The notes below the pieces were generated by a model. The model saw nothing but the letters and a program-made list of their open reading frames with translations, did no database searches and was not told the DNA's origin. A stretch of DNA of 64,000 bases from Thiohalomonadales bacterium. Its GTDB lineage: Bacteria > Pseudomonadota > Gammaproteobacteria > RBG-16-57-12. Location: contig JBNKQQ010000083.1 of NCBI GenBank assembly GCA_050295955.1, forward strand, positions 10,219 through 74,218, in the 5' to 3' direction. Each line of letters opens with the position of its first letter. The first letter of the stretch is position 1. Below are positions 7,415 to 35,578 of this stretch, one piece after another. The translations under genes and the position numbers were made by a program.

Positions 7415-7942
7415 TCACCTGATTGGTGTGGTATCCAGTTCTCCATCGAGTCCCAGCTGTTCACAATACTCGGTAAACTGGAGCTTGAGCTCATCGACGC
7501 TTTTCGTGCTGTTATTTTGTAGCTCAATATCCAGAGAAAACATTGGGCTGCCAGTATGAGGGGCTGGATAGGTATCGGTTTCCAGTGACTGTATGTTTAG
7601 CTGCTGCTGGGAAAAGAACTCGGTGACTTTGTGTACAATACCTGGGTGATCCAGTGCTTCAACATGGGCATGCAGTAGCGGTGTCGTGACAGATGCGGGT
7701 TGAGTAAGTTTGCTGGTGATGGTGAGCCCCATCGTTTGTGACAGCGATGGTAAATGGGATTGCAGTTGCTCAATGGCCTCTTTACCGCTGACTACTAATA
7801 GCATCAGTGCAAATTCACCGCCAAGGATACTCATTCGGCTCTCCTCGATATTACCTCCTTGGTCGAGTATTGCCTTGGATATACGCTCGACGATACCTGG
7901 ACGGTCTTGCCCCAGTGCACTGATTACAAGGTATTGATTCAC
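7415..7942 (-). CDS. gcvR: ACT-domain regulatory protein, glycine cleavage system repressor GcvR-like
   Basis: YLVISALGQDRPGIV and second ACT repeat DHPGIVHKVTEFF parallel E. coli GcvR (HYLVITALGADRPGIV). Confidence 0.65.
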   Translation of the reverse strand: MNQYLVISALGQDRPGIVERISKAILDQGGNIEESRMSILGGEFALMLLVVSGKEAIEQLQSHLPSLSQTMGLTITSKLTQPASVTTPLLHAHVEALDHPGIVHKVTEFFSQQQLNIQSLETDTYPAPHTGSPMFSLDIELQNNSTKSVDELKLQFTEYCEQLGLDGELDTTPIR

Positions 7943-7996
7943 GTTGCCATTCCATTCGTTGATTGCAGTTACTGTAAGGGATTGCCGTTGTGGAAT

Positions 7997-20167: not shown

Positions 20168-20902
20168 ATGGTTGATGAAGTAACCGACGGTACTGATTAT
20201 GACAGTAGTGATGTTCAACAACGGGCAACATCGATTTTAAATGGCTATGTACCACCGCTAAGCAGTCATGTGGCGAGCTGGGAAGTGACCAAAAATGAGA
20301 CAGGTCGATTGGAGATAAATCGAAAGTTTCTGAAAGTCCCTCTGCTCTCCGATATCGGCACCTATTCCCGGCAATTGCAGCAGCATCTCTTTTCCAAGAA
20401 TCAGGTAGACCTATCCGAGGATCCCAACCTTTCAATTATGGCGGATATTCCCGCATACCAGAAAAGCCTGGATGTTTTTAGGCGACTCAAAGATTGTCCA
20501 TTTAAGTTGCACTATTACAAGAAGGCAGTGCCACTTCCCCGGGATGATATCGAGAAAAACCATGTACTCACTCTCCTATCAGGGGAACTCTCAACTCAAT
20601 TGCATGACAGCGATATTGGCGTACCACAGCGGGGAGTGCCTGGAGAGATTATTGTTGGGCGCAAGCGGGGGGGCGGTGCAAAGCATACTACCACGGTAGA
20701 AAAAGGTTCGGCCATTTTGGTGAGAGTGGATGGTGATGACTGGAGTGCAGATCCACTTACATTTTGGCATGATCTTGCGTTCTTGTACGATTGGAAGGCA
20801 AAGCCGGAGTTGACTCCAAGTCATCGGCCAATGCCTGAAGGGATGTATGAATTTGATGTGGATTGGACGTACAATGGGCAGAGCCTGACGTCCCTGGTAT
20901 AG
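20168..20902 (+). CDS. Hypothetical protein (244 aa) preceded by an AT-rich leader
   Basis: ORF only, no motif. The upstream 360 bp is AT-rich. Confidence 0.4.
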   Translation: MVDEVTDGTDYDSSDVQQRATSILNGYVPPLSSHVASWEVTKNETGRLEINRKFLKVPLLSDIGTYSRQLQQHLFSKNQVDLSEDPNLSIMADIPAYQKSLDVFRRLKDCPFKLHYYKKAVPLPRDDIEKNHVLTLLSGELSTQLHDSDIGVPQRGVPGEIIVGRKRGGGAKHTTTVEKGSAILVRVDGDDWSADPLTFWHDLAFLYDWKAKPELTPSHRPMPEGMYEFDVDWTYNGQSLTSLV

Positions 20903-21279: not shown

Positions 21280-23547
21280 TTATTTCGTCAGTGCCATAAA
21301 CAGTTCTGGCAGTTTTTCAGGTAATCGCTCTACTTTATCGATAACGGTGTATTGATTGCCAAAAATACCCTGTACGTACTCATCTGCCTTTGGATCCAGC
21401 GTGATACAGTAGCTGTAGATACCATCACGGTCGAGTTCATTTACCGCCTGATGTGCATCTTCGATCAGCATACGTTCATCTTTGGTATCAATATCCGCGG
21501 GCTCACCATCCGTCAGAATCAACATCAATTTTTTATCGGCTGGTTGTGACTTTAGATAGTGGCCAGCATGACGCATAGCGGCGCCCATACGGGTAGAGAA
21601 TCCAGCTTCCATCGCACCAATACGACCTTTAACGCTGTCATCCCAAGGCTCGTTGTAGCCTTTGATGTGATAGTAGCGGACATCGTGGCGGGTGTTGGAG
21701 TGGAAACCGGAGATGGCAAAGGGGTCTCCCAAATGACCGACAGCCCAGGCTAGTAAAGAGACCGCCTCTTGTGATAGCTCGAGAATGGTTTGGCCACATC
21801 CCGGGACCTTTTCATTCAACGATGCAGACAGATCGAGTACCAGTGATACGGCAATATTACGTCCATCGGTGCGGTGGCTCATATTGATACGAGGGTCTGG
21901 CTGAGAGCCCGCTTTGTAATCGATGAGCGAGCGAATCGCTACATCCAGATCCAGCTCTGAACCTTCCTCTTGATAACGAATACGCACTTTATCTTGAGGT
22001 TTGATCATGTCGAGAATGCGCTTCATTTGTTTCGCTAAGCCCGCATGTTTTTCAAGCAAGCTGTCTACTTTGGCGGCACTGCCACTGGGATGTTTCATTT
22101 CGTAGACGCTAGCCCAATCGGGGCGGTAACTCTTATTGGTGTAATCCCACTCATCATAATGACGTGGTGGCAGTGCATGGATCTCTTCTTCTTCCTTGCG
22201 CTTTTTATCAAGGTGCTCGAAGATTTCATCTTCGTCACTATTCTCGATATAGATCCACAGGTGGCGGTTATCATCGCGATATTCTACTTCGGTATCCTGG
22301 AAGTAAACCTTGGGTGAGAGATCTGACTGACGACGCATGCGGGCGATAAAGGAGAGTCCCAATCTCGACATTTCCGGGCTATTGCTTTCACCTTCTGCCA
22401 TGGCGGCCCGGAAGCGATCAGCAAACTCTCGGATATCGGTATTATCGTATTTATAGTCTGGGTCCAGCATGGCACGGGAGACCATGGCCAGCTTGATACG
22501 AATGGCAGATACTTCGGGATCATCCAGCAGGCTTTCATCTGGGATTGGGTGTAGCGCCAAAAACAGCGGTTTTAAACCAGGATAGCGCTGCATCGCCAAG
22601 TAATCGACACGGCAATCCTCGAATATTTCAACACCAAGGCGTTGGAAGGGACTCCAATTGTCCACTACCATACGGGTACTCCAGCGGCGGTGCGCTGCCA
22701 TGTGCGCCAGCGCAGCGCGATAGCGATTAATACCACTGATTTCATCCAGATCATCATAGACGTCAGGAAGGCGGATACCGTCCTCATCGAAATAGGGCAT
22801 GGGTTTGACGAGGTTGTCAAACGCGAGTGAATAGGGGATGAGTTGATCCCCATCCTTCCACAGGCCTTTCAAATAGAGTTCCAGCTTGCGTTCGTTGTCG
22901 ATCAACAGGGTACCGTGTCGCTCCCGCTGTAACACCGCTTTTGAGTCAGCAGATGCCAAGGAGAAGTATTCAATCTGGCGCTCTGGATGATCGTTGTAAT
23001 AGCGCACACCGTAATCAATCCAGTTCTTAAACCCTGCCAGTGGCACAAGAGATAAGATAATTGGTGCCTGTTTGAGCATCTCTGGCAAGCCGGGACTCGG
23101 GAAGGTGGTATGGTGGCCATGAACCGAGCCGGTGGTGCGATTCATCATGTCTCGCACGACTTCGATATAATGGCCAAACAGGTCCCGGCTATGCAGTCGG
23201 CTTGCAACGGCACCACTGGTTTGCAGGAATGGCACTATTGCTTTGAAGTTGGTGTGAGTTGACATGTAATGCGAAAACTCACGCAGCTCAATTAGAGCCT
23301 CTTCACCTGCGAATGCAGCAACACGTGGTGCCTCTTCCAAATAAATCAGTAGTGGCTCGGGCCCACGTCCCATCTTGCCGAGTGATCGGGCATTCTCTAG
23401 GTAAGCGTTTAGCCCATCGCTCGATAACAAGGAGATGGCTTCTTTGAGGCATTCATCGAAAACCTCATTGACCTGGGCAAATTTACAGCCCAGTTTTTCC
23501 CAATAGGCTTCAAACTCTTTACTTCGTTCGGTTGTGCTATCCATCAA
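21280..23547 (-). CDS. cbbO: CbbO, RuBisCO activation protein (C-terminal VWA domain)
   Basis: 755 aa. C-terminal VWA with DxSxS MIDAS (LDLSASLNE). Lies downstream of cbbQ in the cbbM cluster. Confidence 0.8.
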   Translation of the reverse strand: MMDSTTERSKEFEAYWEKLGCKFAQVNEVFDECLKEAISLLSSDGLNAYLENARSLGKMGRGPEPLLIYLEEAPRVAAFAGEEALIELREFSHYMSTHTNFKAIVPFLQTSGAVASRLHSRDLFGHYIEVVRDMMNRTTGSVHGHHTTFPSPGLPEMLKQAPIILSLVPLAGFKNWIDYGVRYYNDHPERQIEYFSLASADSKAVLQRERHGTLLIDNERKLELYLKGLWKDGDQLIPYSLAFDNLVKPMPYFDEDGIRLPDVYDDLDEISGINRYRAALAHMAAHRRWSTRMVVDNWSPFQRLGVEIFEDCRVDYLAMQRYPGLKPLFLALHPIPDESLLDDPEVSAIRIKLAMVSRAMLDPDYKYDNTDIREFADRFRAAMAEGESNSPEMSRLGLSFIARMRRQSDLSPKVYFQDTEVEYRDDNRHLWIYIENSDEDEIFEHLDKKRKEEEEIHALPPRHYDEWDYTNKSYRPDWASVYEMKHPSGSAAKVDSLLEKHAGLAKQMKRILDMIKPQDKVRIRYQEEGSELDLDVAIRSLIDYKAGSQPDPRINMSHRTDGRNIAVSLVLDLSASLNEKVPGCGQTILELSQEAVSLLAWAVGHLGDPFAISGFHSNTRHDVRYYHIKGYNEPWDDSVKGRIGAMEAGFSTRMGAAMRHAGHYLKSQPADKKLMLILTDGEPADIDTKDERMLIEDAHQAVNELDRDGIYSYCITLDPKADEYVQGIFGNQYTVIDKVERLPEKLPELFMALTK

Positions 23548-23598
23548 TCATGCCACCATGTCGCTAATCAGTTTGGTTTCGATACTCAGTTGTTGGCC

Positions 23599-24408
23599 TT
23601 AGCCAAACGACGCTTCAATTGCGTGATCCAGCGTATCGCGGATATCTGCATCATCCGTAATGGGGTGAACCAATGCCATGCGACAAGCATCCTTGGGCGC
23701 AACGCCATCTTTGATTAGGGTTGCTGCATAGACCAGCAGGCGGGTTGAGATGCCTTCATCCAAGCCGTGACCTTTAAGGTTACGAGCTGCTTGACCAATT
23801 TTCACCAGATTGCTGGCCAGGGCCGCTTCGACACCTGTTTCTTTGGCCAGAATTGAGGTCTCCGTCTCTTCCGTAGGATAGTCGAACTCAAATCCGGTAA
23901 AGCGCTGCTTGGTGGACTGTTTCAGATCCTTCATCAGGCTCTGGTAGCCAGGGTTATAGGAGATAACCAGTTGGAAGTCTGGGTGGGCTTCGATTAGCTC
24001 ACCTTTTTTATCCAGTGGTAGGGTGCGACGGTGGTCAGTTAGGGGGTGGATAACTACGGTAGTATCCTGACGAGCCTCTACTACTTCATCCAGATAGCAG
24101 ATAGCCCCCAAGCGCGCAGCGGTGGTCAATGGGCCATCTAACCAGCGTGTGCCGTTGGCATCCAGCAGGTAACGACCAACCAGATCAGAGGCAGTCATGT
24201 CTTCATTACAGGCAACAGTGATCAAAGGCTTACCCAGTTTCCACGCCATGTACTCTACAAAGCGTGATTTACCACAGCCTGTCGGGCCTTTTACCATTAC
24301 TGGCAGGCGTTTGTTGTAAGCGGCCTGATAGAGTTCTACCTCGTTACCTTGTGCTTGGTAGAAAGGCTCTTCTTTGATCATGTACTGCTGGATGTCCACC
24401 TGACTCAT
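23599..24408 (-). CDS. cbbQ: CbbQ, MoxR-type AAA+ ATPase (RuBisCO activase component)
   Basis: 269 aa. Walker A GPTGCGKS. Typical CbbQ/NirQ/NorQ length and context. Confidence 0.85.
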
Positions 24409-24763
24409 TGGATAACTCCTAGGGAATAGTTGATCTTAATTGAGGGTCATTATTATTGAGGTTAAGCATAAATAACAGTCAGGGTTTTTGATTGGTTGGA
24501 TAAGTAATCATTTATGTGTGGTTTGTTCTGGCGTTGGTCGTGGTAGGGGACTGCTTGCTGATGATTATTTATTGGGGTCCTCTACAAAAAAATGTGATTC
24601 AGTAAAAAAAAATTATTTTTCAATATATTGTGTATGTGTCAGTTCACTTTTTTTCAGTATGACAAATGAATGAGATGTTTTTTCGATGGCGCCGCGCCAA
24701 CAAAAAAGCCCCCACCCATGGTGGAGGCTTTAGGCTGATAGGCTAAAAGAAAATAAAAAGGGA

Positions 24764-25093
24764 TTAGTCTTCCGCTTCATCCTCTTTTACATCCATTTCT
24801 GGATCCCAGCCCATCTTTTTGGCCCGTTCAACGGCATCGTTCTGGATGCGGGTGAATTTCTCTTGTAGTTCAGGCGGAAGATTGCTAACTAGGAAGCCAT
24901 ATTTTTCCCATTCAGCACTGGTTTTTGCCCATAAATCTTGGATACCTTGAGGAAGCCATCCTTCGCAATCCTGATCCTCAGGGAGTAGTCCGAAGATCCA
25001 GGCGTCGCGGATGATCTTGCCGGTATCGGTCATGCCGCCAAAGTGGTCGTTATAGATGCCCACATACTTTTTAGTTTCTTTATTTATACGCAT
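24764..25093 (-). CDS. Hypothetical protein (109 aa) inserted between cbbM and cbbQ
   Basis: ORF with acidic C-terminus. Same strand as the cbb genes. A terminator-like hairpin lies just downstream at ~24700-24735. Confidence 0.45.
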   Translation of the reverse strand: MRINKETKKYVGIYNDHFGGMTDTGKIIRDAWIFGLLPEDQDCEGWLPQGIQDLWAKTSAEWEKYGFLVSNLPPELQEKFTRIQNDAVERAKKMGWDPEMDVKEDEAED

Positions 25094-25317
25094 AGCTTGT
25101 CCTGCCTAAAAAATGCTCGATGGCGCGAGTATAGCTCAATAGCTAGGTGCGAGGTCAACGGGGGAAGATAGTTGGAGTGGGGTTTAATTCACTGTTAATC
25201 TTGATTTGTCGCAGAGTTGGTTATTTTGAATGGATAAAATAGCAAGAAGCCCTTGCCAAAAGGCAAGGGCTTCTTAGTACTACAGCTTTTGCTGAGACTG
25301 GGGTGACACAAGTAATC

Positions 25318-26730
25318 TTACTTGTGTGAACCCAGTTGATCGCGCCAGCCTGGGAAGTACTTGTCAGCATCGTGAGGGAATGACTCGAATGCACGAGCAA
25401 ACTCAGGGTGAGTTTTTGCGTATTCGATTGGATCAGTACCGTCTTTCCAGCACTCGTATGCTTGACCCAGAGAAATACCACCCGCTGCTGGGCTGTCGAT
25501 GTGACCGAATGAGCCACCACCACAAGTGTTGATAACGTTACCGTGACCCAGGTTCTCGAAGAAGCCTGGCAGGCGCAGTGCGTTCATACCGCCAGAGATG
25601 ATTGGGGTACAAGCCTTCATGCCGTGCCACTTCTGGTAGAAGTAAGGACCTTGGCACTCATCACGCTCCAGCATGTAAGCCAGAACAGTCTCACCAGCGT
25701 GACCTTCCATCTTACCGTAACCCATGGTACCAGTGTGGATACCAGAAGCACCCATCAGACGAGCCAGCTTCATGTAGCACAGTGGATCCATACCCATTGG
25801 TGACTTGTAAGAAGTTACCGCACCGTGACCTGCGCGGTGGAAGTGCAGGAAGGTGTCTGGGAATGCGCGACGGCAAGTTGTTACACCAGCAGGGCCAGTT
25901 ACGAAGCCATCAACCAGGAAGGCAACGTGAGATTCACTGTTGTACTTCGCGAATTCACCCAGGATGTACTCACCACGACGGATCATTTCACCGTGGAAGT
26001 CAGCAGTTACGTTCGCAGAGAACAGTTTAGCTTGACCAGTTTCTTGCTGTGCACGGTCCATCGCTTCTGCAACCTTAGGAATAACCACTTCCATTGGGCA
26101 GAAAGGTTGGTTAGCTTGTGGCTCATCGTTCTTGATGAAGTCACCACCCAGCCAGAAGTCATAGCATGCCTTAGCGAAAGGATCAGGACGCAGACCCAGT
26201 TTAGGCTTGATGATGGTGCCCGCAATGTAACCACCGTCAACTTCTGGACGACCCAGAACTTTCCACAGATTAGAGATGTTGGCAGAAGGACCGTCGAACT
26301 TCTTAACCATGCACTCAGGTACCATGAAGTCCAGCATACGCAGGCCTTCGTGATCGCCCATACCTTGGTTGTTACCCAGGATCAGAGACCACATGTGAGA
26401 AACGTTGAAGATACCGTCAGTCAGGTTAGGATCAAACAGGTCAACAGGGTATGCGATCTTCATCAGGCCGCCACCTTTAACTGGATCGTCACCGAAAGCA
26501 GTTTCGTCGATTTCGTATACCAGTGCGTCAACACCGCGGGTGAAGTCGTCAGTGGTAGATACTTCTACGTTGGTACCAGTAGAAGATTCTGCTGCAACGT
26601 GTGCTGCAACTTCCAGGAAGCCGTAGCCTTTAGCAGGAATCAGCTTGTAGGCAACCAGCAGGTGCTTACCACCATCGATTAGATCCTGTTCGTTCAGGTC
26701 CAGTCTTGCGTAACGGTTGGATTGATCCAT
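25318..26730 (-). CDS. cbbM: Ribulose-1,5-bisphosphate carboxylase/oxygenase, form II large subunit
   Basis: 470 aa. Form II length and sequence (no small-subunit gene adjacent). Followed by cbbQ/cbbO with divergent cbbR. Confidence 0.9.
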
Positions 26731-27067
26731 TGTCGTCTCCTGTATTCAGGGGAGTCCCCTGAGGTTATGTTACCGGTCTGCCGAGGCTTGCCGGCGCTTT
26801 TCTTGGCTTTAGCGGTTAATGACTAATGCCCTCAAATTCGATGTGCGTACTTTACCCATGTTTAATCATAAATTAAATTCAAATTATATTATTATTACGA
26901 TAAGATTTACCTTATAGGTTATTGTGTATGGCGAGAAACCTATATATAGATATGATCTATGTTGGTGGAAAGAGTGTTTCGTCCTTGATGGGATTTTTTT
27001 GAGTATTTTTTGTTCATTTGTCGCTATTTTCATGTGGCATTCGATTTGGCTCTGATGAGGTGATGCT
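26731..27067. promoter_or_regulatory. Divergent cbbR/cbbM control region (AT-rich, expected CbbR binding sites)
   Basis: 337-bp AT-rich intergenic region between divergent LysR regulator and RuBisCO genes. Exact boxes not resolved. Confidence 0.4.
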
Positions 27068-27979
27068 ATGGCGCTGAATATTACGATTCGTCAATTGAAG
27101 GTTTTTCAGGCTGTGGCACGTCATAATGGTTTTACCCGGGCTGCGGAGGAGTTGCATCTTACGCAGCCGGCAGTTTCTATGCAGGTGAAGCAGTTGGAGG
27201 AGCAGGTAGGCTTGCCCCTTTTTGAGCAGGTAGGTAAGAAGATCTTCCTGACAGAGGCGGGGAGAGAGATGCAGCACTATGCCAAACAGTTCTCTAATTT
27301 GTTGCAGGAGGCAGAGGATGTGTTTGAGTCAATTAAAGGGGTTCAGCGAGGGAGCCTGGATATCTCGGTTGCTAGCACGGCTAATAATTTTGGCACTAAG
27401 CTTTTGGCCGCATTTAGTCGTGAGCACCCATCGGTAACAATCAAATTGGATGTGACCAATCGAGAAACTCTGCTGAAGCAATTGGCAGAGAACGAAAAAG
27501 ATTTGGTGATTATGGGGCGGCCCCCTAGCAATATGGAGTTGGAGGCCATCCCATTTCTTGATAACCCCCTTGTGGTGATCGCCCCGGCCGCACATCCTTG
27601 GGCGAAAGAGAAGGATATTGATCCTGAGCGGTTACGTGATCGTACCTTTGTGGTGAGGGAGAAGGGGTCTGGTACTCGCATGTTGATGGAGCGCTTTTTT
27701 GAGTCTCACGATATCCCTTTCGAGCCAGGCATGGAGATGACGAGTAATGAGGCGATTAAGCAAGCGGTAGAAGCAGGACTAGGCTTGGCCGTGGTCTCCA
27801 TGCATACACTCCGACTGGAGTTGGAGACCAGTCGCTTAGCGGTACTGGATGTGCAGGATTTTCCCATTATGCGCCATTGGTATCTGGTGCACCCCAAGAG
27901 CAAACGTTTATCTCCAGTTGCTTTGGCATTTCGGGAGTTTGTGTTGCAGCGGGCTGGTGAAATTCTATTGCAGACCTGA
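27068..27979 (+). CDS. cbbR: LysR-family transcriptional regulator CbbR
   Basis: N-terminal HTH (IRQLKVFQAVARHNGFTRAAEELHLTQPAVS). 303 aa. Divergent from cbbM. Confidence 0.85.
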   Translation: MALNITIRQLKVFQAVARHNGFTRAAEELHLTQPAVSMQVKQLEEQVGLPLFEQVGKKIFLTEAGREMQHYAKQFSNLLQEAEDVFESIKGVQRGSLDISVASTANNFGTKLLAAFSREHPSVTIKLDVTNRETLLKQLAENEKDLVIMGRPPSNMELEAIPFLDNPLVVIAPAAHPWAKEKDIDPERLRDRTFVVREKGSGTRMLMERFFESHDIPFEPGMEMTSNEAIKQAVEAGLGLAVVSMHTLRLELETSRLAVLDVQDFPIMRHWYLVHPKSKRLSPVALAFREFVLQRAGEILLQT

Positions 27980-27992
27980 TTTGTGCAGGGCC

Positions 27993-28898
27993 TTACTTAT
28001 TCTCCAGATCCCGGCCTTTTTCGATATCGTCCCAGGTCGTACCTTTGGGTGTGGTCAGCCAACGCATTAATTTATTGGTGAAGCTGGCATTGCGGGCTTT
28101 TTTCCGGATACTGGCATTAACGCTTGGCGGTGGTGGGGGGGCGGCAGATACCGTTGGGGCATGCTGGTGTTGCTCCCGACCGCTGTCCAAGTGAGTCACC
28201 TCATCCTCTGAAAGAATTACAATCTCGATGGGGACCGGCATGGTTTCGATGCTTTTTCCGCTCTCCACGTGCTCTAGATTTAGCCCCAGGCTGGCCACGG
28301 TATTTTCCATTACCTTACGCATGCCTTCGTTAAGGGTATCAGAGCTGAGCATCTCCTTGGTCTCTTCCATCATATTCATGATACTGAGTGAGACCCGTTT
28401 TCTGCAGGTTTTTTCCCGGGCACTGACCTCGGCCAGCTTTTTGACGATGATTTCACTACTGACGCTGAAGGGAGTCGGTTTGGTAACTTCGCCACGGGAG
28501 TGTAGGATACCTTTGATGGCAACCGCTGTTTGTGAGTTCTTGGAGTAGGTTTCCAGCAGGGCATCAATTTGCTCTTCGCCGACGGAAAGAGAGACCAATT
28601 GGTCATCGTTCATTTCGGCGATATCGAGAATAATTTCCAGTTTACCCTGTACCGATTTTTCGAGATGGGCGAGGGTTTCCCGTAGTTTTCCAGTGGGTTG
28701 TACGCGGACACTCTCTTCCAGGCTATCCATCAAGGCCTTGATTTTAGGGGCCGCACTGGAGACGGGTTTTCCCAGCATGACAATTGAGTGCAGGCTGTCA
28801 TTCAGGCGTTCAACCGCTAATGCTATTTGTACCACTTTCTCTAAAGTGGCACGCTTCTTTTGTAACGCGGTCAATTCATCTGTCGGGTTGCTGGTCAT
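27993..28898 (-). CDS. Hypothetical protein (301 aa) with poly-Pro segment
   Basis: ORF, coiled-coil-like N-terminus, PPPPPS tract. No assignable domain. Confidence 0.45.
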   Translation of the reverse strand: MTSNPTDELTALQKKRATLEKVVQIALAVERLNDSLHSIVMLGKPVSSAAPKIKALMDSLEESVRVQPTGKLRETLAHLEKSVQGKLEIILDIAEMNDDQLVSLSVGEEQIDALLETYSKNSQTAVAIKGILHSRGEVTKPTPFSVSSEIIVKKLAEVSAREKTCRKRVSLSIMNMMEETKEMLSSDTLNEGMRKVMENTVASLGLNLEHVESGKSIETMPVPIEIVILSEDEVTHLDSGREQHQHAPTVSAAPPPPPSVNASIRKKARNASFTNKLMRWLTTPKGTTWDDIEKGRDLENK

Positions 28899-30406: not shown

Positions 30407-31099
30407 ATGAAACCCACATCCCTATTTTATCCACTAGTTCTGGTGTTGGTGTTGTCGGGCTGTGCATCGACAGAATTGAAAGAACAGAATACCTCACTTC
30501 AGCAGCAAGTTACCGAGCTGGAGAGTGAGCAACAGCAGCAGCAAAAGGCTCATGAGCAGGAGGTTAAGCAGCTGCAACGGGATTATGCAGATAAGTTGCG
30601 CTCAGCAGAGAGCATGGCCGAGGGTGAGAAACTCTCCATGCGTAACGAGATGGCCAGCATGCGCCGTGAACTTTCCCAGGTGCTGTCAGAGAAAGAGGCG
30701 TTGATTAAGCAGGTTAATGATTTGACGGTCATTGATTTGAATCAAACCCTGTTGTTTGCCTCTGGCGGTGTGGAATTGACACCGGAAGGGAAGGGGGTGG
30801 TTAGGGAGCTGGCCAGTGCCCTGGTGGGGTATCCCGGTTATCATGTGCGTATTGAGGGGCACACTGATAATTTGCCATTAAATGAGGAGCTGAAAGCGCA
30901 GTTCATCTCCAACTGGGAACTCTCCGCAATGCGGGCTAGCAATGTGGCAAAGTATTTGGTGTATGGTTTGGGATCTGATAAGAAGCACATTTCGATTGCC
31001 GGTTTTGCCGATACCCGGCCGGTGGCAGATAACTCGACTCCCCAGGGACGTGCGGAAAATCGTCGTGTCAGGGTGGTGGTTTTCAAAGAGCTGGATTAA
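30407..31099 (+). CDS. OmpA/MotB-domain lipoprotein with coiled-coil linker
   Basis: Lipobox LVLSGC. Gln-rich coiled coil. C-terminal OmpA-like motifs (TDNLP ... NRRV). Confidence 0.75.
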   Translation: MKPTSLFYPLVLVLVLSGCASTELKEQNTSLQQQVTELESEQQQQQKAHEQEVKQLQRDYADKLRSAESMAEGEKLSMRNEMASMRRELSQVLSEKEALIKQVNDLTVIDLNQTLLFASGGVELTPEGKGVVRELASALVGYPGYHVRIEGHTDNLPLNEELKAQFISNWELSAMRASNVAKYLVYGLGSDKKHISIAGFADTRPVADNSTPQGRAENRRVRVVVFKELD

Positions 31100-33005: not shown

Positions 33006-33344
33006 ATGAGCAACCTACCTAATTGCCCGAAATGCGGATCGGAATATACCTATGAAGATGGCGCGATGTATATCTGCCCAGAGTGCGCCCATGAATGGTC
33101 TCAGGATGCTGCTGCGGAGGCAGATGAGCAGGACGTGATTAAGGATGCTAATGGCAATGTACTGCAGGATGGCGATACAGTAACTGTTATTAAGGACCTT
33201 AAGGTGAAGGGCTCCTCATCAGTGGTTAAGGTGGGCACCAAGGTGAAGAATATCCGTTTGGTTGGCGGTGATCACGATATTGATTGTAAGATTGATGGTT
33301 TTGGCCAGATGTCGCTGAAGTCGGAGTTTGTCAAAAAGGTTTAA
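33006..33344 (+). CDS. phnA: PhnA/YjdC zinc-ribbon protein
   Basis: Near colinear with E. coli PhnA ([30 protein letters not shown] ... [17 protein letters not shown]). Confidence 0.9.
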
Positions 33345-33375
33345 TCCTTTTCTTACCAAAACGACGCAGTCAAAA

Positions 33376-33410
33376 AAGCCTGGATGGGTTGCCATCTGGG
33401 CTTTTTTATT
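33376..33410 (+). terminator. Rho-independent terminator after phnA
   Basis: agcctggatgg-gtt-gccatctgggct (with G-U pairs) followed by tttttt. Confidence 0.65.
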
Positions 33411-33563
33411 GCCGATCCGCTTTGCAAGGGGATGCGTCATTTAGATGTAGTCTATTTCAAATAATCATACTATCTGTTAAAAACATTAAAAAAAATATTA
33501 AAATTTGATTAGAAGAGAACGATATAAAGGGCGTGGATAAAATAAATATGAAGGGTATCAGTC

Positions 33564-33734
33564 ATGGAACAATTCACTCTCGGTAAGCGGATTCTTGTCA
33601 CCTTTTTTATTTTAATGTTTGCATCCCCTGCCTTTGCTTGCACTCTCAGTGATGAAGTAAAGGGCTTCTCTGATACGGAATCTATTCATAACGCTGTTGT
33701 TACTTGTTTATCCGCTCTCTATAGCGAGGAATAG
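33564..33734 (+). CDS. Small secreted peptide, paralog 1 (56 aa). Not in the ORF track
   Basis: MEQFTLGKRILVTFFILMFASPAFA-CTLSDEVKGFSDTESIHNAVVTCLSALYSEE. Signal peptide with AxA-C cleavage. Confidence 0.4.
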   Translation: MEQFTLGKRILVTFFILMFASPAFACTLSDEVKGFSDTESIHNAVVTCLSALYSEE

Positions 33735-33768
33735 ACGATTTAATCAAATAGAATAGAAGGGTTTTCTT

Positions 33769-33939
33769 ATGAAGAAGAGTTTATTGGCGAAATTACTAAT
33801 GAGTGGTGTTGTTGCTCTACTCGTTTCTATCCCTGCATTGGCATGCTCATTGGAGCCTGCTGGGCAAAGTTACAGTGATACGGACTTTGTCGATGTGGAA
33901 ACAATTCACTTGCTGTCTAAGCTGTACATCGAAGAGTAG
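33769..33939 (+). CDS. Small secreted peptide, paralog 2 (56 aa). Not in the ORF track
   Basis: MKKSLLAKLLMSGVVALLVSIPALA-CSLEPAGQSYSDTDFVDVETIHLLSKLYIEE. Shares C-[TS]-L, SDT, IH and LY-x-EE with paralog 1. Confidence 0.4.
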   Translation: MKKSLLAKLLMSGVVALLVSIPALACSLEPAGQSYSDTDFVDVETIHLLSKLYIEE

Positions 33940-33978
33940 TCAATGATAGCGCCCCCTGTTGGGGGCGCAGGCTGTTTT

Positions 33979-34416
33979 TCAAATGGAGCGTGTCATTTTC
34001 TGATGTGGAATGCCGGCATCAAGGAATTCATCGCTCGCTATCGTAAAACCATGGCGTTGGTAAAAACTGATTGCATGACATTGAGCATCAAGCTCAATGG
34101 TTTTGATAGCGTGCTTTGCCGCCAGTTCTATCATCTGGGTGAGCAGACAGCTTCCTACTCCCTGCTGGCGCCATGGCTTGATGACTGCCATGCGGCCAAT
34201 ATGGCCATCTTTTAACATTCTGACACAGCCTATCGGATTACTATGATGATCAACGGCTAAAAGATGAAAGGCGTTGTTGTCTTCACCATCCCACTCCAGT
34301 GATTCTGGTACATTCTGCTCTTCGATAAAGACCTGCCGCCGAATAGTGGCGAGAGCTTGTTGCTGCTGCTGCCAGCTAACCTGCTGAACGGTATAGTTTG
34401 ATCTATTCATCTTCAA
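33979..34416 (-). CDS. GNAT family N-acetyltransferase
   Basis: RQQGVGSCLL acetyl-CoA binding motif. 145 aa. Confidence 0.75.
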   Translation of the reverse strand: MKMNRSNYTVQQVSWQQQQQALATIRRQVFIEEQNVPESLEWDGEDNNAFHLLAVDHHSNPIGCVRMLKDGHIGRMAVIKPWRQQGVGSCLLTQMIELAAKHAIKTIELDAQCHAISFYQRHGFTIASDEFLDAGIPHQKMTRSI

Positions 34417-35578
34417 AATAGAGCATTCCCAGATTTACCCAGTGCAATAGCAATTGACCGCACTCTTCATCTTGAATGTAGGGGGTGAGTTGCTCGTGGG
34501 TTAGAGTGAAGTGGTCGCAGAGTAATATGCCCAGTTTGGCCTGGTTGCCGTCCAATAGATGGGGCTCCCCATCGATAAACAGCTGGATGTGCTGTTTGTC
34601 TTGCCTGAAAAAGTGAAAGCGGCATTGCTCGTTACGCCTTAATGGTTGGTATGCGATATGGTCCCGTAGCTCTTGGGTGGTGAACGGTTGTTCTGGGAGT
34701 AATGGGGTTAAGGGATTTCGGGGCTCGCTGATAAAGCGACCGAACCACTCACCGACACTTTTTTCATCCAGAGGCAGTTGTTGTAGCAATTGAGTAAGTT
34801 TATTGATGGTATCCGAGCTGATTTCTCCCGGGTGCTGCTGGGGCTGGAGCTGAGTGTCTGTAAAGTAGGTCGATAGAGATCCGTGCTCCAGAAGGTAATC
34901 CATAAAGCTTGTTTGTAGTTCGCTCTGGGATAAGGCGCGATAGCCGATGGAGAAGGTCAAGCTATCTCCCTGTGCAACACCATAATGGGCCACACCTGGG
35001 GGAAGATAGAGCATATCTCCCGGTTCCAGCACCCAGTCATGCTCCGCCTCGAATGTTTTCATGATGCGTAACGGCACATCTTCCAGGTAGTTATCTTTGG
35101 CAACCTGATTGGTATCAATGCGCCAGCGCTTTTGTCCCTCAACCTGTAGCAGGAAGACGTCGTAAAGGTCGTAATGAGGGCCGACGGTACCTTGATCAGG
35201 TGAGTAGCTGATCATGATGTCATCGAACCACCAGCTGGGGATAAAACTGAACTGCTCCAGCAGTGATGAGAGTTCAGGTATATGGCGATTGGCTTCCTGA
35301 ACCAGCAGGCTCCAGTGAGTGGAAGGTAGTTTGCTGAAGGTGGATTCATTGAATGGGCCACAAAGCAATTCCCATGGGGTGCTACCTCCTTGCTCAATGA
35401 CTAAGCGAGATTCCACTTCCTCTTCACAGGCGAGCCCGGCAAGCTCTTCTGCGGCAATAGGGGAGTGATAATCCGCTAGCGCATTACGAATCAAGAGAGG
35501 CTTTTTTTGCCAATATTGATCAAAAAATTGTTGGGGGGTAATACCGCCAAGAAGAGGGAGCTGAGTTGCATTTTTCAT
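34403..35578 (-). CDS. roxA: Ribosomal protein L16 arginine hydroxylase RoxA/YcfD (JmjC/cupin)
   Basis: Colinear with E. coli YcfD: WQKKP, GPHYDLYDVFLLQVEGQKRWRI, LYLPPGVAHYGVA. Confidence 0.8.
   Translation of the reverse strand: MKNATQLPLLGGITPQQFFDQYWQKKPLLIRNALADYHSPIAAEELAGLACEEEVESRLVIEQGGSTPWELLCGPFNESTFSKLPSTHWSLLVQEANRHIPELSSLLEQFSFIPSWWFDDIMISYSPDQGTVGPHYDLYDVFLLQVEGQKRWRIDTNQVAKDNYLEDVPLRIMKTFEAEHDWVLEPGDMLYLPPGVAHYGVAQGDSLTFSIGYRALSQSELQTSFMDYLLEHGSLSTYFTDTQLQPQQHPGEISSDTINKLTQLLQQLPLDEKSVGEWFGRFISEPRNPLTPLLPEQPFTTQELRDHIAYQPLRRNEQCRFHFFRQDKQHIQLFIDGEPHLLDGNQAKLGILLCDHFTLTHEQLTPYIQDEECGQLLLHWVNLGMLYFEDE

Follow-up and report, generated by a model that had tools for sequence, protein, structure and literature searches.

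The nearest described analogue, in organisation, of the gene pair reported here is the entericidin EcnA/EcnB locus of Enterobacteria. Like our locus, it has two paralogous genes in tandem on one strand; their pre-peptides, of ~40-56 aa, carry an N-terminal signal with Cys at +1 after it and a mature part of ~30 aa that is predicted to be helical, and they are encoded on the chromosome without a dedicated exporter. Small single-pass bacterial membrane proteins are a more generic class, of < 60 aa, whose members modulate larger membrane proteins; our pair shares with them its size, the presence of one hydrophobic helix, the lack of a family annotation, and intergenic genes that have their own ribosome-binding site and terminator. 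Class II microcins and Sec-dependent bacteriocins are likewise small, ribosomally made, exported and often encoded in tandem. The pair also resembles small periplasmic proteins processed by signal peptidase I in its n-h-c layout; substrates of this enzyme have small residues at -1 and -3, frequently together with a helix breaker somewhere from -4 to -6 (PMC9360617), and the pair has small residues in both places and its helix breaker at -4. The lipobox of lipoproteins is described as [LVI][ASTVI][GAS]C at positions -3 to +1 (PMC7296081) or as Leu-Ala/Ser-Gly/Ala-Cys (PMC9360617), and entericidins have been proposed to be membrane-active lipopeptides (PMC7296081).

We analysed a 64-kb stretch of DNA (the window), in which such a pair lies in the gap between phnA/yjdM and a convergent GNAT acetyltransferase gene (Table 1). 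The first-pass annotation had described two tandem, same-strand, paralogous 56-aa ORFs at this place, and the coordinates, the ATG starts and the 32% identity, which extends without gaps over all 56 residues (BLASTP, E 9e-10), agree with that description. The gap itself, previously put at 560 bp, measures 634 bp from the phnA stop to the GNAT stop; it is indeed AT-rich, with a GC content of 0.40 compared to 0.484 for the window, and the ORFs have GC contents of 0.41 and 0.43. The product of ORF1 reads MEQFTLGKRILVTFFILMFASPAFA (predicted signal) followed by CTLSDEVKGFSDTESIHNAVVTCLSALYSEE (predicted mature part), and that of ORF2 reads MKKSLLAKLLMSGVVALLVSIPALA followed by CSLEPAGQSYSDTDFVDVETIHLLSKLYIEE; segments of these predicted products include CTLSDEVK..., CSLEPAGQSYSDTDFVDVETIHLLSK and the C-terminal LYIEE. 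Aligned on their own, the predicted mature parts score z = 7.4, and 0 of 5000 shuffles scored as high. Both proteins are already present in an NCBI-derived protein collection (212,652-bp contig). Among the motifs that the pair was said to share, SDT(E/D) and LY-x-EE are in register, but in the ungapped alignment the (S/T)IH of one copy stands 5 residues away from that of the other and thus has no conserved position; the SIH of ORF1 aligns with a SIN in an outside homologue, P0004, described below. We also noted that the mature part of ORF1 holds a second Cys, Cys48, which is absent from ORF2 and P0004. Thus, an intramolecular Cys26-Cys48 disulfide is possible only in ORF1, and this Cys may be a mark of functional divergence between the paralogues.

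Table 1. Features of the peptide locus and of the neighbouring genes (window coordinates).
Feature	Position	Strand	Details
755-aa ORF	21280-23547		no Pfam match; in CbbO position
CbbQ	23599-24408		
109-aa ORF	24764-25093		no Pfam match; just downstream of RuBisCO large subunit, possibly small subunit
RuBisCO large subunit	25318-26730	-	
LysR regulator	27068-27979		divergent
phnA/yjdM	33006..33344	+	TIGR00686, E 9.5e-53
phnA/yjdM intrinsic terminator	33372..33407	+	upstream limit of peptide unit; 16-nt inverted repeat, then T-run; RNA fold -28.8 kcal/mol, z -6.5
Promoter-like site TTAAAA-16-TAAAAT	33477..33504	+	in AT-rich leader; 9/12 matches, weak evidence
ORF1 ribosome-binding site AAGGG	33551..33555	+	8 nt before ATG; read from sequence
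ORF1 pre-peptide (P0001)	33564..33734	+	56 aa, ATG start
ORF1 predicted signal region	33564-33638	+	codons 1-25
ORF1 predicted mature peptide	33639-33731	+	31 aa, from Cys26
ORF2 ribosome-binding site AAGGG	33757..33761	+	7 nt before ATG; read from sequence
ORF2 paralogous pre-peptide (P0002)	33769..33939	+	56 aa, ATG start
ORF2 predicted signal region	33769-33843	+	
ORF2 predicted mature peptide	33844-33936	+	31 aa, from Cys26
Intrinsic terminator closing peptide unit	33949..33978	+	8-bp all-G:C stem, 4-nt loop, then CTGTTTTT; 10 nt past ORF2 stop; RNA fold -20.4 kcal/mol, z -3.1
GNAT acetyltransferase	33979..34416	-	convergent
JmjC/RoxA-like oxygenase	34403-35578	-	

The signals around the two ORFs suggest that the pair would form a self-contained two-gene transcription unit for paralogous pre-peptides of a very rare, unannotated family. 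The unit lies between two intrinsic terminators, and each ORF is preceded by an AAGGG. The AAGGG of ORF1 sits inside a 20-nt repeat, ATAAAATAAATATGAAGGGT, whose second copy occurs 206 nt downstream, ahead of ORF2. Thus, the duplicated unit brought its own translation signals, and the pair would have arisen when a stretch of ~206 nt, ribosome-binding site included, was duplicated in tandem. RNA folding of the 34-nt spacer between the ORFs yielded no hairpin, and co-transcription is therefore likely. Promoter-like matches were no more numerous than in shuffles, and the match at 33477-33504 is no better than expected by chance. A 12-nt tandem repeat, AAAAA[CT]ATTAAA (33479-33502; AAAAACATTAAA / AAAAATATTAAA), lies upstream of ORF1, where it overlaps this sole promoter-like match, and might serve to bind a regulator or act as an UP-element-like tract. 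A search with Rfam found no RNA family anywhere in the 64-kb window.

One homologue outside the window, P0004, was found when we searched 1.84 billion representative proteins with a two-sequence profile (hmmsearch), at an E of 1.4e-4 that is partly owed to the hydrophobic signal region. P0004 has 58 aa, MKISSSIKALLAASLIVAVSFPALA followed by CTLSETAGNTGYTDTDSINSHVMARITAEFYVE, with a PALAC-TLS site, the segment YTDTDSI and a C-terminal FYVE. Its gene (980-1156 on Logan contig L002, which has 1,364 bp and 69% GC) has AGGAG 7 nt before the ATG and lies directly downstream of a gene for a two-domain rhodanese sulfurtransferase. The GC content of the P0004 gene (0.486) and of the spacer upstream of it (0.43) is lower than that of the contig around them (0.63-0.69), a strong contrast that suggests foreign origin or strong constraint. 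Across the family, the mature parts align at z 6.3-7.4 (0 of 5000 shuffles reach the observed scores), BLASTP of the mature parts alone returned no local alignment, and overall identity among the three members is 32-37%. The conservation statistics are thin because only these three members are known.

Further searches left the family at this size. In 5.8 billion proteins, a word-indexed search with profiles built from two and from three sequences yielded no member beyond the three, and screening every fetched locus and the entire 64-kb window in six frames (hmmsearch) added none. Nothing meaningful matched the peptides in Pfam, NCBIfam, PHROGs or PADLOC at E <= 1, and plasmid and phage records gave no match (tblastn, E <= 1). 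Likewise, no confirmed relative emerged from two back-translated pattern scans of JGI metagenome contigs, assessed with full-length and signal-trimmed alignments, or from one such scan of viral contigs. Two candidate members from the search of 1.84 billion representatives, P0003 and P0005, were rejected as repetitive Ig-like proteins with low-complexity matches to 'PATASSLTVNVLSFSATD' repeats, and PSI-F, found in a PDB profile search (E 0.49), was dismissed as a chance match. From these collections, the three-member family appears to be unannotated and nearly unique among billions of proteins. The shift towards AT relative to the host, seen in the window genes and in P0004, is compatible with horizontal acquisition; neither the repeat analysis nor the plasmid and phage searches gave a mobile-element signature at the pair.

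All three pre-peptides have the same layout, in which one to three K/R residues (K8/R9 in ORF1; K2/K3/K8 in ORF2; K2/K8 in P0004) are followed by 20-21 uncharged residues and then by P-A-[FL]-A-C-[TS]-L; counted from just past the K/R to the first acidic residue, the uncharged stretch is 20, 20 and 21 residues long. Invariant in the family are M1, K8, P22, A23, A25, C26, L28, a D, a T and the terminal E. The first-pass annotation had read these N-termini as signal peptides cut before a Cys, and the Sec-type architecture and the invariant Cys directly after A-x-A bear this out, but the cleavage itself is a prediction. The predicted mature peptides of 31, 31 and 33 aa contain 5-7 acidic residues and one basic residue each, with a predicted net charge of about -5 (ORF1), -6 (ORF2) and -4 (P0004), and all three have an [ST]-D-T-[DE] motif opening a predicted helix as well as an aromatic-Tyr-x-Glu C-terminus. 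AlphaFold2, run on the three-sequence alignment, placed helices at residues 3-30 and 37-54 with a loop between them, at low overall confidence (pLDDT 63) and with a pLDDT of ~74 in the core of helix 37-54. The conserved [ST]-D-T-[ED], which we take to be a form of the S/T-x-x-E/D helix capping box, falls exactly at the start of this second helix. The maximal hydrophobic moment of the second helix was reached by 23-71% of shuffles, such that its amphipathicity is not significant.

In these properties the pair departs from entericidins, to which it has no sequence relationship: hmmscan against Pfam-A and NCBIfam (E <= 1) returned no entericidin or other lipoprotein family, the lipobox of the pair is non-canonical, the peptides are strongly acidic, and their helix is not clearly amphipathic. 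Thus, the pair is not a member of the entericidins and probably acts differently.

The pair lies in core-chromosome gene order. Ahead of it, in window order, are the genes for RuBisCO large subunit, CbbQ and LysR (23.6-28 kb), a DEAD-box helicase, an OmpA-family lipoprotein, an SPFH protein and phnA/yjdM; past the pair come those for the GNAT and JmjC/RoxA-like proteins, N-carbamoylputrescine amidase, agmatine deiminase, CNNM/CorC, a CcsA-like and a metallo-beta-lactamase-fold protein, and the order ends with ffh, rpsP, rimM, trmD and rplS. The carbon-fixation cluster spans 21280-27979 of the window, and since the window carries RuBisCO and CbbQ, the host is probably an autotroph (a chemolithoautotrophic gammaproteobacterium). 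Two further ORFs, at 27993-28898 (minus strand, 301 aa) and 20168-20902 (plus strand, 244 aa), have no Pfam match at E <= 1e-5.

Among 5.8 billion proteins, those most similar to the JmjC protein share 59% identity with it and belong to Gammaproteobacteria MAGs; judged by such sequence comparison, the host lineage appears to be isolated. We compared the window with seven loci of relatives (L003-L009). In these, the region from the metallo-beta-lactamase gene to the JmjC gene (and to the GNAT gene where it is present) is syntenic with the window. Synteny breaks off precisely where the GNAT gene ends on its 3' side, and there the relatives have a gene for a 121-123-aa rhodanese lipoprotein and two Reg_prop genes. 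In the window, this place (~33345-33980) holds the peptide pair, with phnA next to it, both in the opposite orientation; the 64 kb contain no homologue of the rhodanese or of Reg_prop. Since the relatives carry other genes past GNAT, the pair sits at a synteny break. The first-pass annotation had looked to conservation in relatives for support of its ORFs, and the outcome is divided: the nearest relatives (JmjC 56-59% identical) lack the genes, at a place where synteny is broken, but a distant homologue, P0004, exists. A scan of genome contigs with the JmjC neighbour as query yielded only a high-GC MAG (L001; JmjC 53% identical), which does not have the peptides.

Two side observations concern these loci. 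The JmjC/RoxA-like and GNAT genes overlap by 14 nt in the window, and the JmjC-GNAT pair is conserved in L001 (5914-7601), L008 (5001-6633) and L009, while L003-L006 have no GNAT gene; the pairing suggests a functional couple, perhaps of a ribosomal-protein hydroxylase and an acetyltransferase. In L006, a called 54-aa gene (7814-7978; MAKGGARSLFFRKAYRKLKL...) lies immediately upstream of the rhodanese gene; its product is basic and unrelated to the peptide family, and the call is possibly spurious.

We considered that the ORFs might be chance frames within duplicated non-coding intergenic DNA. The AT-rich region, the lack of annotation in any family library, the absence of the genes from the nearest relatives, and the outcome of 5000 first-order Markov simulations of the gap, 280 of which (5.6%) held two ATG-ORFs of >= 50 aa on one strand, would all fit this explanation; however, 0 of 5000 simulated gaps held two ORFs with signal-like N-termini. 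Moreover, in a codon alignment of ORF1, ORF2 and P0004, nucleotide identity at codon positions 1/2/3 is 0.41/0.61/0.32, 0.54/0.64/0.23 and 0.43/0.54/0.30 for the three gene pairs, and the 18-19 identical residues per pair use different codons at 10-15 of them. This order of identity (position 2 > 1 > 3), together with the synonymous changes at conserved residues, means that the protein is conserved rather than the DNA. The correctly spaced ribosome-binding sites, the dedicated terminator, and the occurrence of an independent, identically organised homologue in a genome of 69% GC also argue against chance frames, which are strongly disfavoured and which we regard as very improbable. Four independent lines of evidence, namely gene signals, substitution pattern, outside homologue and shared architecture, indicate that both ORFs are real protein-coding genes. 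If the genes are real and their products exported, we would give cleavage by signal peptidase I about an even chance, lipoprotein processing a clearly smaller one, and retention as an uncleaved anchor a small one. The Ala-X-Ala rule holds in ORF1, ORF2 and P0004 (A-F-A/C, A-L-A/C and A-L-A/C, with the slash at the predicted cut), and the invariant Pro at -4 supplies a helix breaker within -4 to -6, whereas none of the three members matches the canonical lipobox: residues -1 and +1 fit, but -3 (Ala) and -2 (Phe/Leu) deviate, and Pro stands at -4. Thus, as read from these residues, the predicted cleavage region fits signal peptidase I better than it fits the canonical lipobox, although the 31-aa product is very short compared to other small periplasmic proteins released by this enzyme, which does not require the invariant +1 Cys. 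That Cys is what keeps open a lipoprotein route, in which Lgt would diacylglyceryl-modify Cys26 and LspA would cut before it, tethering the acidic 31-aa peptide to the inner or outer membrane (Thr/Ser at +2 would predict that Lol sorts it to the outer membrane). It is invariant at +1 (3/3) despite an overall identity of 32-37% and is left unexplained by signal peptidase I cleavage alone; the most conserved block, P-A-x-A-C-[TS]-L, spans it, a pattern seen in lipoproteins and unusual for signal peptidase I substrates; a positively charged n-region precedes a hydrophobic h-region; and the lipobox permits Ala at -1. Small lipoproteins of similar size are known in entericidins and in Atu8019, which has a mature part of 32 aa (PMC7296081). 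Against this route, Ala at -3 and Phe/Leu at -2 are off the canonical lipobox in all three members, the Pro at -4 gives them the kind of c-region that signal peptidase I substrates typically have, a strict and a Prosite-like lipobox pattern both fail for all three, and the canonical LVLSGC is present in a true lipoprotein encoded in this window, the Pal-like OmpA-family protein at 30407. We therefore treat small lipoproteins as a possible, distinctly second reading of the locus. An uncleaved single-pass inner-membrane protein, held by a signal-anchor with its N-terminus inside and an acidic periplasmic tail that modulates a larger membrane protein, would accord with the 20-21 uncharged residues, with the single continuous helix that AlphaFold2 places at residues 3-30, and with positive charge confined to the N-terminal side. 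Such an anchor is unlikely, since a perfect Pro(-4)-Ala(-3)-x-Ala(-1) kept in 3/3 members is hard to explain without cleavage and the Pro would fall within the putative membrane helix; unlike small single-pass membrane proteins, the pair has a conserved A-x-A motif and a soluble acidic tail that argue for processing.

The peptides might instead be released outside the cell, as bacteriocins or cell-to-cell signals, and the first-pass annotation had called them bacteriocin-like. Loci of this kind typically have small secreted peptide genes that stand in tandem and diverge from one another, and the AT shift relative to both hosts (0.41-0.43 vs. 0.484; 0.486 vs. 0.69) is compatible with horizontal spread. 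However, the bacteriocin-like label does not hold up: the mature peptides are acidic, with a net charge of about -5 and -6 where class II microcins are cationic or hydrophobic; the leader is Sec-type, and the sequences contain no GG or GA (double-glycine) leader; the hydrophobic moment of the helix is not above that of shuffles; no antimicrobial or defence family matches; and searches with PADLOC, PHROGs, and plasmid and phage records gave no match. No partner genes accompany the pair. We found no RiPP enzyme, ABC exporter, C39 peptidase, immunity gene or sensor kinase near it, the transporter or modification genes for which a search had been proposed, and immunity genes as well, are absent within ~13 kb on either side, and the 20-48 kb part of the window contains no ABC exporter, C39 peptidase, immunity, sensor-kinase or modification gene. 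Release from a Gram-negative cell would also need an outer-membrane export step, of which no component is seen here. Taking both sides together, we consider release quite improbable. A further possibility is that the pair is an AT-rich, horizontally mobile mini-cassette whose N-terminal-Cys acidic peptides act as periplasmic thiol, persulfide or metal carriers in sulfur metabolism. This reading was prompted by the RuBisCO and CbbQ of the host, by the position of P0004 beside a rhodanese, and by the rhodanese lipoprotein gene that follows GNAT in the relatives; we regard the rhodanese associations in these two settings as loose coincidences rather than a demonstrated association, and the carrier role as very doubtful indeed.

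The best overall explanation, and one that we hold to be reasonably probable on the sequence evidence, is that the pair encodes exported, paralogous, acidic envelope peptides that are cut before Cys26. Sec export and an envelope location are well founded in the sequence features and their conservation and are very probably correct. In the mechanism that we propose, a Sec-type N-terminus of K/R and ~20 uncharged residues, ending in Pro(-4)-Ala(-3)-x-Ala(-1), would direct the pre-peptide into or across the inner membrane, where it would be cut immediately before the invariant Cys, with signal peptidase I as the likelier enzyme. The product would be a strongly acidic 31-aa peptide on the periplasmic side, comprising an N-terminal Cys-[TS]-Leu, a short linker, a helix of ~18 residues opened by the capping motif, and an aromatic-Tyr-x-Glu(-Glu) C-terminus. 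Its site of action would most likely be inside the cell envelope, and a diffusible toxin is unlikely. The conserved Cys (through a disulfide, as a thiol ligand, or, should Lgt act on the site, as a lipid anchor) may, together with the acidic helix, bind a partner protein or a cation.

Systematic under-annotation affects small exported proteins, most of which have no known function. The pair is an ordinary orphan small-protein family that gives no pointer to a new mechanism and touches no long-standing question, and its value lies mainly in correct annotation, as an 'exported small acidic peptide, family of unknown function, possible lipoprotein'. It shows that a family of exported small proteins may come close to being unique, here with three members in billions of proteins, and it adds to this class a clean, testable example that combines a defined operon with a conserved Cys at the predicted cleavage site and a conserved helix-capping motif.
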